From positions 686,934-750,933 of the forward strand of contig JBFWNU010000004.1 in NCBI GenBank assembly GCA_050250895.1: DNA of 64,000 nucleotides. Direction: 5' to 3'. Every line of letters starts with the position of its first letter. The stretch's first letter is position 1. The notes beneath the pieces are model-generated. The model did not search any database. It saw nothing but the letters and a program-made list of their open reading frames with translations, and was not told where the DNA came from. Source of the stretch: Vulcanimicrobiota bacterium. GTDB taxonomy: Bacteria; Vulcanimicrobiota; Xenobia; Xenobiales; JADMJV01. Positions 7,090-8,304 of this stretch are shown here, one piece after another. The position numbers and the translations under genes are program-made.

Positions 7090-7293
7090 ATGGCTATTGG
7101 AATTAATGGTATTGGTGGAGTCGGCGCATCCGGTGGCGTCACCGGCGGACAGAACCCGATCCAGCGTTTGCTGCAGGCCCTTCGTTCGGGCCAGGGTGGC
7201 GGCGGCTGCAGCTGTGGCTGTGGCGGCGGAGCCGGCGGCGCGTGTCAATGCGGCGGCAACTGTGCCGCCCGCGCCCAGGGCATTCTGGGCTAA
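7090..7293 (+). CDS. Small Gly/Cys-rich peptide (67 aa, 6 Cys), metallothionein-like C-terminus
   Basis: RBS AGGAG at 7075. MAIGINGIGG...GCSCGCGGGAGGACQCGGNC. Paralogous context at 32471. Confidence 0.75.
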   Translation: MAIGINGIGGVGASGGVTGGQNPIQRLLQALRSGQGGGGCSCGCGGGAGGACQCGGNCAARAQGILG

Positions 7294-7313
7294 TCCTCCA
7301 TTCGCGTAGACCT

Positions 7314-7345
7314 GAAGGTCGAGCATTTGCGTGCTCGGCCTTTCT
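7314..7345 (+). terminator. Stem-loop after peptide gene (partial terminator or 3' stabiliser)
   Basis: GAAGGTCGAGCA-tttgcg-TGCTCGGCCTTT(ct). Confidence 0.6.
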
Positions 7346-7374
7346 GACGTTTCTCATCGAAAGGAGACGATGCC

Positions 7375-8304
7375 ATGAAGAATCCCACCGCCGCCCTCCA
7401 ACAAGCCTTCGGAGAAGCTTCCGAACCCACCACCATCAGAGAACTCTTCGAAGCCCTCGGGGCCTGGTCAGACGGCCAGCTTCAGACGGAAGCCGTCATC
7501 GGTGGTATCGAGGCCATGCTTGCCAAACTAGAGCAGGCGGCCCAGGCCACCCGCGATGACCTGCTCCGGCAGAGTCACCTGGAAGCGGGTCTGAAAATCC
7601 CCATAGAGCATTCCTTGACCGCCTACGAAGATTTGCATGCGGTCCTGGTTGAACTCGAACAAGGCATCAAAGAAGGTCACACGGACCAGGTCGAGTCCGC
7701 CTTCGAGGGCTTGAGCGCGGCCGCAGAGGACCTCGCCGAAGCCCAGCAACAGATGGAAGAGTGGTTGGCCGACCCATCGGCTCGCTGTCTTCGCTGTGGC
7801 GAGAGCCTGGCTGACCCGTGTCCTAATTGTGGCCTGGAACTGCTGCGGCCGGATCGCCACTCGGCCTTTGGAGATGCCTTCGAGACTTCGATTCTACCGG
7901 CCGAATTCTCCGAGGTCGCGGCCCGCCTACAGCAAGTGCTCTCGGGCCAGCGAACCTTGAGCACCCTCTGGCCCTCTTTGACCCACCTGCAGAGCCTGCT
8001 GTGCAATTATCAGGCGGCCGCCCAGGCGGCTTCGCGCGAGCACGACTCGCCCACCCTCATCGATTTTGTCCTGGCTATCGACGAAGCCCTGGCTGGGATC
8101 GAGCTGATGAATCGGTGCGTCCAGACCAGAGCCACCGCCGATCTGCGAGCGGGATGGCGAACCACCTTCGAGGCCGGAAAGCGTGTGACCGACGGTCGAC
8201 GCGAGCTGCTCGGGGAATTCGCAAGCCCGGACGAAGCTCTCGATTCAGTCCCCAGCCCGACGTTCGACAGCGTCTTTCTGAGCGACTCGAGTAAAGGTTT
8301 TTGA
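7375..8304 (+). CDS. Hypothetical helical protein with central double CxxC zinc ribbon
   Basis: RBS AAGGAG. CLRCG...CPNCG. Paralog of 32778..33683. Confidence 0.85.
   Translation: MKNPTAALQQAFGEASEPTTIRELFEALGAWSDGQLQTEAVIGGIEAMLAKLEQAAQATRDDLLRQSHLEAGLKIPIEHSLTAYEDLHAVLVELEQGIKEGHTDQVESAFEGLSAAAEDLAEAQQQMEEWLADPSARCLRCGESLADPCPNCGLELLRPDRHSAFGDAFETSILPAEFSEVAARLQQVLSGQRTLSTLWPSLTHLQSLLCNYQAAAQAASREHDSPTLIDFVLAIDEALAGIELMNRCVQTRATADLRAGWRTTFEAGKRVTDGRRELLGEFASPDEALDSVPSPTFDSVFLSDSSKGF

Follow-up and report, generated by a model that had tools for sequence, protein, structure and literature searches.

The window analysed here, a stretch of 64,000 nucleotides from the genome of a Vulcanimicrobiota bacterium of the order Xenobiales (assembly GCA_050250895.1, contig JBFWNU010000004.1, positions 686,934 to 750,933 of the forward strand), holds two copies of a two-gene module, in which the gene for a small, Gly-rich, cationic protein is followed by a GC-rich hairpin and by the gene for a larger, acidic partner protein (Table 1). 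Both gene families are undescribed, and the unit is rated here as a putative pair of client and binding protein built from them. An earlier note on this DNA, made from the sequence alone, had reported a 67-residue peptide, a 12-bp hairpin and a 309-residue protein, and each of these parts was found where it had been placed. Its further claim that the arrangement recurs about 25 kb away (32471-33683) with a paralogous partner also holds, since partners 1 and 2 are 29% identical over 272 residues (E 6e-22) and have in common all the motifs that had been quoted, namely EPT in the N-terminus, CxxC...CxxC, DL..GW and, at the C-terminus, DSV.LS. No BLASTP alignment was obtained between the two small proteins.

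Table 1. Positions of the module features in the window (aa, amino acids; ORF, open reading frame; RBS, ribosome-binding site).
Feature	Position	Strand	Description
RBS of small protein 1 (AGGAG)	7075..7079	+	10 nt ahead of ATG 7090; from reading of the sequence
Small protein 1	7090..7293	+	67 aa; 36% Gly, 6 Cys, net charge +3
Hairpin 1	7315..7342	+	Uninterrupted 12-bp GC-rich stem between both genes; putative terminator/attenuator or RNA-stabilising stem
RBS of partner 1 (AGGAG)	7362..7366	+	8 nt ahead of ATG 7375; from reading of the sequence
Partner 1	7375..8304	+	309 aa; net charge -27
128-aa ORF	8301..8687	+	Overlaps the stop codon of partner 1; hydrophobic segment and Cys-rich stretch; gene status uncertain
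Small protein 2	32471..32713	+	80 aa; 29% Gly, 9 Cys, net charge +5
Hairpin 2	32727..32753	+	12-bp GC stem between small protein 2 and partner 2
Partner 2	32778..33683	+	301 aa; net charge -12; paralog of partner 1

Layout and conservation of the two-gene module

For small protein 1, the TTG at 7084 is a less probable start than the ATG at 7090; an ortholog-like peptide from another genus (locus L055) begins identically. The 81-nt spacer of module 1 folds with -29.7 kcal/mol (z score -3.1, with 1 of 200 shuffles equally good), and the spacer of module 2, taken as a whole, reaches a z score of just -1.2. The G+C content upstream of the two small genes is 46% and 53%, against 63% genome-wide, as expected of promoter regions. 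The 128-residue ORF at the end of partner 1 has no Pfam or NCBIfam match and no counterpart after partner 2 or in the other modules, and lies outside the conserved module.

The source genome (G000; 9.5 Mb in 17 contigs, 99.6% complete) holds several further copies. A partner profile found in it five strong paralogs (E 1e-99 to 7e-123), a sixth one (E 1.5e-26), seven longer and more distant forms of 286-643 residues (E 2e-12 to 7.5e-4) and one half-size form (E 0.0075). All five strong paralogs have a Gly-rich ORF at a distance of 43-125 bp, and because just 90 ORFs in the whole genome pass the filter for such frames (Gly at least 25%, Arg+Pro at most 12%, 45-240 residues), most of them resembling off-frame artefacts, the pairing of peptide and partner is far above chance. 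The half-size partner, preceded by a 63-residue Gly/Cys ORF, brings the number of modules in this genome to six; it keeps only the C-terminal bundle with D-L-x-x-G-W and has no zinc ribbon, which suggests that this bundle is the client-related part of the protein.

Look-alike small genes without a nearby partner are also present in the source genome. At the locus L010 (G000:C1:1503000-1510000, 2276-4018), a DtxR/MntR-type regulator gene is followed by two tandem small genes of the family, rich in Gly, Cys and His, which are encoded on the same strand, are partner-less and have downstream a 102-residue ORF of no known identity. Unrelated to the modules is a 174-residue ORF (G000:C7:401401-401925, plus strand) with approximately 20 repeats of C-x-G-K-D-G and 22 Cys, the start of which is presumably a Tat-like signal.

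The pairing was surveyed for 66 partner genes from 24 genomes of one class, comprising 65 matches at E 6e-17 or better and the half-size paralog, with one 148-residue fragment left out. A neighbour was defined as an ORF of 45-200 residues from Met, with at least 19% Gly and at most 12% Arg+Pro, no more than 400 bp from the partner gene and with an overlap of at most 60 bases. So defined, a Gly-rich small-protein neighbour is present for 37 of the 66 partner genes, and three further ones (L059, L060 and L067) have longer, Cys-rich neighbours that were recognised by eye. On a partner tree obtained by a quick maximum-likelihood search, a fully supported clade of 12 slowly evolving genes, among them the sixth paralog of the source genome, has no small-protein neighbour. 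Once this clade is set aside, 37 of 54 partner genes are paired, so that most partner homologs do have the small gene beside them; partner homologs mostly without an upstream peptide would, according to the earlier note, have refuted its proposal. A cruder rule, now superseded, had paired 21 of 64 partner genes, against 30 of 1333 control frames of similar length from the source genome, having overlooked real cases and let in about three false ones.

The type of neighbour tracks the partner clade, with the Lys/His-repeat type present in 12 of the 14 rows of one clade, and the presence or absence of a neighbour changes 11 times on the tree, against 21.7 times with shuffled labels (none of 500 shuffles was as low). 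Several rows are near-identical orthologs, which are kin and not independent, and the counts thus reflect co-inheritance of the unit and not 37 separate events. Two partner-family genes adjoin longer proteins with an N-terminus that resembles that of the small proteins, one of 274 residues with a Peptidase_C39_2 domain (E 1.6e-8) and the other (L008) of 359 residues with a Gly-zipper and a domain without known identity. This C-terminal domain, with its WGDPHE motif, was considered as an autocleavage domain of the DUF1521/NopE type, an assignment that was dropped, as nothing was found in Pfam up to E 1 or in the PDB. A search for related loci seeded by a single protein found nothing.

Within the neighbour-less subfamily, one member (L009, G000:C1:1077000-1084000, minus strand) lies between a gene for a 702-residue RsbA/RsbW-like kinase and a gene for an 800-residue M14 carboxypeptidase with a long Pro-rich tail. 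At an orthologous locus (L077), the upstream gene is also putatively kinase-like, as judged by eye.

Gene order and the hairpin are conserved as well. The small gene lies upstream of the partner gene on the same strand in 30 of the 37 modules, downstream on the same strand in six, and is convergent with it in one. Of the 28 upstream-type modules whose spacer is 20 nt or longer, 23 have an unbroken stem of 11 bp or more in the fold of the gap; of the controls, 81 intergenic gaps of 55-210 nt between same-strand genes on contig C4 of the source genome, 19 have one. The hairpin behind the small gene is thereby kept from genus to genus, and five U's come after the stem of one paralog, as in a classical intrinsic terminator. 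As judged from the sequence, the hairpin may cause partial termination or stabilise the 3' end, in which case the small protein would be the more abundant product, and its conservation fits a peptide that is made in excess.

The small proteins and their partners

Nineteen short members of the small-protein family, the two of the window included, align to one plan. Met is followed by an N-terminus of alternating polar and hydrophobic residues (such as N-I-N-I-N or I-G-I-N-G-I-G-G), a Gly-rich stretch, one helix, which is Leu/Gln-rich here and Met-rich in a lower-GC genus, and a second Gly-rich stretch with a nearly invariant G-G-C-x-C-G, whose C40 and C42 make up a Gly-flanked CxC that is nearly invariant in these members; a C-terminal R-x-x-G-phi-(G/L)-(F/G) is present in 16 of the 19. 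Small protein 1 runs from M-A-I-G-I-N-G-I-G-G through a Gly stretch, an amphipathic helix (approximately residues 22-32) and a CxCxC Gly/Cys cluster to a G-I-L-G end. Small protein 2 starts with M-S-A-I-G-A-V-N and continues with a short helix, a Gly run and a Lys/Cys cluster, holding nine Cys in CxC/CC patterns within its C-terminal 28 residues and no hydrophobic C-terminal motif. Contrary to the earlier note, Cys is not a hallmark of the peptide, because whole clades carry 0-2 Cys, with Lys/His or Met-rich stretches instead. In one clade, the small proteins are 150-200 residues long and combine two strand-like motifs and a Lys/His repeat run with the same helix and C-terminus and 0-2 Cys.

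The frame of the small proteins is under purifying selection and this speaks strongly for their translation, a point on which the earlier note had made its proposal depend. The ratio of nonsynonymous to synonymous substitution rates (dN/dS) is 0.01-0.33 in 10 of 14 ortholog pairs; a further three pairs have saturated synonymous sites (proportion of synonymous differences, pS, 0.78-0.84; of nonsynonymous differences, pN, 0.15-0.21), and one pair was not computable. A profile of the 19 members found just five matches, all unnamed, among 5.8 billion proteins, and the small genes are mostly uncalled by annotation pipelines. Against Pfam (in a library without the Hpa1 model PF28067), none of the 19 members has a match below E 0.39, and the three matches at E 0.39-7.5, of one member each, are at chance level.

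The partner was modelled with AlphaFold2 from an alignment of 91 sequences, with a mean predicted local distance difference test (pLDDT) of 90.7 and a predicted TM score (pTM) of 0.80 for partner 1. Except for the strands of a short zinc-ribbon insert (133-160), the model is all-helical, with one bundle on each side of the insert, the first (21-132) formed by helices 21-32, 38-65, 71-100 and 103-132, and the second (176-282) by helices 176-189, 195-222, 226-246 and 254-282. The predicted Cys4 zinc ribbon is made up of C138, C141, C149 and C152 in two CxxC knuckles, and the second bundle bears D256, L257, G260 and W261. Across the 91 sequences, C138, C141, C149 and W261 are invariant, while C152 (at least 90%), G191, G241 and G260 are nearly so. 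Since the invariant residues are few and their pattern is not enzyme-like, the partner is probably non-enzymatic, and its conservation points to a zinc site with a structural role and to a scaffold for binding rather than to catalysis. Partner net charges range from -12 to -48, against +3 and +5 for the small proteins of the window.

From about residue 291, the tail of partner 1 is modelled with low confidence (pLDDT below 65) and carries D-S-V-F-L-S. An acidic linker and, at the very end, D-x-(V/I/L)-x-(F/L)-(S/T)-(G/N/D) make up the last part of the tail in many clades. When a disordered tail bears such a conserved short motif at its tip, this usually indicates that it docks onto some other protein. 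A role of the motif as a general sorting tag was also considered, and was rejected for want of enrichment in the proteome (23 matches against 20 in a shifted control).

Among 1.84 billion representative proteins (clusters at 50% identity), 272 match the partner profile at E 1e-3 or better, 147 at 1e-10 and 89 at 1e-30, nearly all of 270-330 residues; the database sequence nearest to partner 1 (65% identity) carries the label Candidatus Eremiobacteraeota, the phylum being called Vulcanimicrobiota in the Atlas. Within the phylum, a match is present in 37 of 301 sampled genomes. Three large-genome families have it in all of their genomes (15 of 15, five of five and three of three), the number per genome in the large-genome families being two to seven. 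In the same order, a family with small genomes has it in 12 of 19 genomes, exclusively in long or weak forms, and the large-genome family f13 in one of five, as a weak match. No match was found in the remaining 254 sampled genomes, nor in any of the eight of the 301 that are flagged as unpublished and count only in the denominators. In the literature, the order (UBP9, including Ca. Eudoremicrobiaceae and Ca. Xenobiaceae) is presented as one of possibly predatory bacteria rich in biosynthetic gene clusters (PMC9259500).

The partner has no relative in Pfam, NCBIfam, PADLOC or among PDB sequences, its match to the Pfam family DZR (17.2 bits) lying under the cut-off of 27.3 bits. A profile search of the PDB returned just designed helical bundles, eL40/Nop10 zinc ribbons and very weak ESAT-6-like and flagellin rows, and the Atlas search only unnamed Vulcanimicrobiota clusters. 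As the small proteins have no match in these four resources either, the unit is kept across genomes and no description of the module was found in the literature searched, the earlier note was right to see here an undescribed, conserved two-gene system.

A search of longer proteins found no fused longer forms of the partner, and an apparent 1145-residue fused frame was rejected, as it consists of a long-form partner and the following gene, read as kinase-like. In a small-genome relative (L037, G084:C199:14447-18061, minus strand), a 528-residue long-form partner is followed after 4 bp by a putative membrane Ser/Thr-kinase-like gene, recognised by eye. Another long-form partner, of 559 residues, is part of an apparent four-gene operon (L086, G000:C3:490500-497000, minus strand) together with a 207-residue Gly/Arg-rich protein ending in a Cys cluster, a GNAT protein, and a 454-residue protein with TPR repeats and a weakly peptide-arginase-like N-terminal part (E 3.6e-6, below the cut-off); this operon may be a peptide-modification context for the long-form partners.

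The flanks of both modules, of approximately 10 kb, hold genes for a fused RND-TolC pump, Uma2, a trypsin-like peptidase, a histidine kinase, a glycoside hydrolase, a deacetylase-family protein, PilZ, TerB, a hydroxy-acid oxidase dependent on flavin mononucleotide and an MGDG-synthase-like transferase. The pump is encoded by a single 1477-residue ORF (1864-6297, plus strand), in which an RND efflux permease (1-1030) is fused to an outer-membrane factor of the TolC/NodT type (approximately 1075-1473). A tRNA gene (9107-9177, plus strand; Rfam, 62 bits) lies within the 3' part of a 418-residue ORF on the opposite strand (9068-10324), which has no family match and whose true end is doubtful.

A possible client-chaperone pair and competing explanations

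The preferred reading of the unit, which is held tentatively, takes the small protein as a disordered, cationic client and the partner as a cytosolic chaperone or adaptor of its own, which would probably serve export. The evidence establishes pairing, co-inheritance, translation, the conservation of the hairpin and the fold class and charge of the partner; physical binding, stoichiometry and export are inferred. The small protein would be an intrinsically disordered, Gly-rich client whose N-terminus tends to form a strand, which contains a single amphipathic helix and a CxC cluster between Gly residues, and which in most cases has a hydrophobic G-phi-G-phi C-terminus. Its gene would be transcribed from its own AT-rich promoter region, and the hairpin would stop or attenuate most transcripts, shifting the stoichiometry by reducing the amount of partner made. 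The partner, as a non-enzymatic and strongly acidic cytosolic protein, would bind the client physically, its C-terminal bundle gripping it most likely at the helix and keeping it soluble, whereupon the tail-tip motif D-x-V/I-x-F/L-S/T would dock the complex on a shared cellular machine, most likely an export route. The final destination of the small proteins might then be outside the cell, where a possibly predatory lineage would release them as proteins resembling harpins or antimicrobials. In its general features, the partner looks like a chaperone or adaptor for export, and the longer neighbours that share the N-terminus of the small proteins and carry other domains are what a shared delivery module would give. 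A more specific version, which appears rather improbable, is a new class of exported harpin-like Gly-rich proteins in possibly predatory Eremiobacterota with large genomes, each accompanied by a member of a new family of zinc-ribbon chaperones that dock by their conserved tail motif on a type III-type export platform (the flagellar gate or one of eight stand-alone FlhA C-domain paralogs of the genome), the Cys clusters cross-linking or binding metal after release.

Several observations weigh against export by a dedicated chaperone. No known type of secretion signal was recognised in the small proteins, and the modules have no linked export genes. Neither the sheath protein TssC of a type VI secretion system nor an EccC-type ATPase of a type VII system was found in the genome, which has a single FtsK. 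An injectisome route was rejected, since both FlhA genes lie in flagellar clusters and no secretin is near those export gates, and the presence of FlhA was set aside as a discriminator, because this protein is nearly universal in the phylum (287 of 301 sampled genomes). The near-invariant CxC has no role in the client-chaperone model, and no client was detected for 29 of the 66 partner genes, near relatives of client-bearing ones included. Furthermore, a zinc-ribbon partner of 300 residues is unlike known secretion chaperones, with no family match backing the analogy, and the resemblance of the small-protein N-terminus to type III signals, and of the sequence style to harpins, is tentative, with one weak, feature-based Atlas row (score 0.75) pointing to an Hpa1 cluster.

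Stand-alone FlhA C-domains are an observation in their own right. Besides the two full-length FlhA proteins, eight ORFs (frames of 379-1024 residues) on contigs C1, C6, C7 and C8 of G000 match only the cytoplasmic C-domain (FHIPEP approximately 260-656), and so many stand-alone copies are unusual. First-look candidate counts are high in other large genomes too, including those of family f13, where the partner match is the weak one in one of five genomes.

On the other hand, the small proteins could be a cytosolic metal buffer, that is, metallothionein-like sponges for Cu(I), Zn or Cd made in bulk, with the zinc-ribbon partner holding the apo-form or helping to load and unload it. This explanation, the main rival, is doubtful, although it is a possibility to be taken seriously. 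It gives a role to the near-invariant C40 and C42 of the short members and to variable parts that are enriched in turn in Cys, in His (Lys/His repeats and, in one orphan, a His/Cys stretch) and in Met, and the C-terminus of small protein 2, with its nine Cys in 28 residues, is metallothionein-like. No signal peptide was seen, in line with a cytosolic role, and the excess expression suggested by the hairpins would suit a stoichiometric buffer. One partner gene lies 4 bp after the gene for a CopA-type P1B ATPase, and a DtxR/MntR-type regulator gene comes just before two orphan small genes, but these metal-related neighbours are two isolated observations from 66 loci rather than the outcome of a systematic scoring. 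Moreover, neither Pfam nor NCBIfam gives a metallothionein match, entire clades have no more than 0-2 Cys, metal binding assigns no role to the conserved N-terminus, helix and hydrophobic C-terminus, and the dedicated partner is left unexplained. The bacterial metallothioneins described so far are not known to need a paired partner. That the small protein is a toxin, bacteriocin-like or membrane-active, and the partner its cognate cytosolic protein for immunity or neutralisation, in the manner of class II bacteriocin-immunity or toxin-antitoxin pairs, is unlikely. The order of a small gene and a larger same-strand gene in 30 of 37 modules, the many diversifying copies per genome, the joint inheritance of client and partner, the hydrophobic, Gly-zipper-like nature of some central helices and the predatory habit proposed for the lineage (PMC9259500) would all agree with it. 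Nevertheless, reading of the small-protein sequences revealed no double-glycine leader, and no C39-ABC exporter is present among the scanned window genes (the rest of the genome was not searched for one). The low dN/dS shows no diversifying selection, and one partner family accompanies clients with quite different C-terminal parts, which suggests that the partner recognises a shared part and not a toxic domain.

The earlier note had also proposed the precursor of a ribosomally synthesised and post-translationally modified peptide (RiPP) with a novel maturase. In such a system, the N-terminal part and the helix of the small protein would serve as leader, and the Gly/Cys run would be the core that is modified in trans, for instance to azoles as in microcin B17, with the partner as a leader-binding scaffold. 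The alignment does show a Gly/Cys-rich core and a conserved N-terminal part before a variable core, copies lie scattered over the genome, one YcaO is encoded in it, and a long-form partner shares its operon with a Gly-rich protein, a GNAT protein and the protein with weak likeness to peptide arginases (E 3.6e-6, below the cut-off). Even so, this proposal has lost ground and is now improbable, and unlikely as a general answer: as the same note had observed, no maturase or other RiPP enzyme lies within approximately 10 kb on either side of the two window modules. The sole YcaO is on another contig (C1), and none was found in G088 (98% complete), G066 (97%), G100 (96%) or G092 (96%); G088, G066 and G100 have modules whose small proteins are Cys-rich. 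In addition, the partner looks non-enzymatic, with no enzyme-like conserved residues, and a partner paralog of its own for each precursor would be unusual among leader-binding proteins. Just as improbable is a self-assembling structural protein, amyloid-like or gel-forming and maybe cross-linked by Cys, with the partner as the chaperone that controls assembly. The alternating polar and hydrophobic strand-like motifs at the N-terminus and inside the long forms, the Gly-Phe and Gly-Leu repeats and the hydrophobic end motif of 16 of the 19 members are suggestive of it, and the excess expression that the hairpins point to is typical of structural subunits. However, no structure or organelle is known in this uncultured lineage to which such a protein could belong, and nothing ties the modules to envelope or cytoskeleton genes.

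Likeness to known systems and significance

By analogy, the mode of action of the module would be closest to that of a substrate paired with a chaperone of its own, and by its sequence the small protein most resembles harpins or metallothioneins. Nonetheless, when the defining features of harpins, metallothioneins, chaperones, bacteriocins and azole peptides were tested, the module failed some of each, and no metallothionein, chaperone or bacteriocin family gave a match. The acidic helical partner, encoded beside a disordered client and predicted to have a flexible C-terminal tail, recalls FliS, FlgN, FliT and the type III class III chaperones. Unlike these flagellar and type III chaperones, the partner is two to three times larger, consists of two bundles and a Cys4 zinc ribbon, has no family match of the FliS, FlgN, FliT or CesT type, and has no genomic link to flagellar genes. 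Its two CxxC knuckles are those of zinc ribbons (DZR/Zn_Ribbon_1), the DZR match being sub-threshold.

Metallothioneins (SmtA/BmtA, MymT and the fungal Cu-metallothioneins) are likewise small proteins with CxC/CC clusters in a Gly-rich setting, a likeness seen chiefly in small protein 2. Their dense CxC/CxxC/CC clusters are present in the two small proteins of the window and not family-wide. The small proteins further differ from them in the lack of a family match, the conserved N-terminus, helix and C-terminal motif, the dedicated partner gene and the many Cys-poor members. With McbA, the microcin B17 precursor that is encoded with McbBCD, they share a Gly/Cys-rich core behind a conserved N-terminal part and a hairpin after the precursor gene, which in the modules is putatively attenuating. 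The Gly/Cys/Ser-rich composition of the core fits the precursor of a linear azole peptide, with no leader cleavage site definable; unlike the microcin B17 cluster, the modules have no cyclodehydratase or dehydrogenase within approximately 10 kb. The class IIa immunity proteins (four-helix bundles of the PedB type) offer another parallel, in which a small-peptide gene is followed by a gene for a cytosolic helical bundle with a flexible C-terminal tail, whereas the partner is three times larger, holds a zinc ribbon and has no sequence relation to them. As for the other components of class IIa systems, no double-glycine leader was seen by eye, and no exporter of the peptidase-containing ATP-binding cassette transporter (PCAT) type among the scanned window genes.

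Harpins of the Hpa1/XopA group from Xanthomonas are described as small, Gly-rich, largely disordered proteins with short helices, which are secreted by a type III system, are acidic and have no Cys (PMC6945534; PMC12854069). The small proteins of the window are similarly rich in Gly (36% and 29%), but they are cationic (+3 and +5) and have 6 and 9 Cys, the CxC being nearly invariant in the 19 members, and only flagellar-type export gates were found in the genome. Harpins are not known to have a paired zinc-ribbon partner.

Should the client-chaperone export unit prove true, it would bring a new chaperone fold and possibly a new secretion signal, while a metal buffer would be the first metallothionein-like system with a dedicated partner. 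Both families are undescribed, and they are abundant in their lineage, the order of Ca. Eudoremicrobiaceae, a group known for biosynthetic richness and suggested predation (PMC9259500). The small genes are largely missing from protein databases, pointing to a layer of putatively highly expressed small proteins that is invisible to standard annotation, and the compact two-gene system is directly testable in E. coli.

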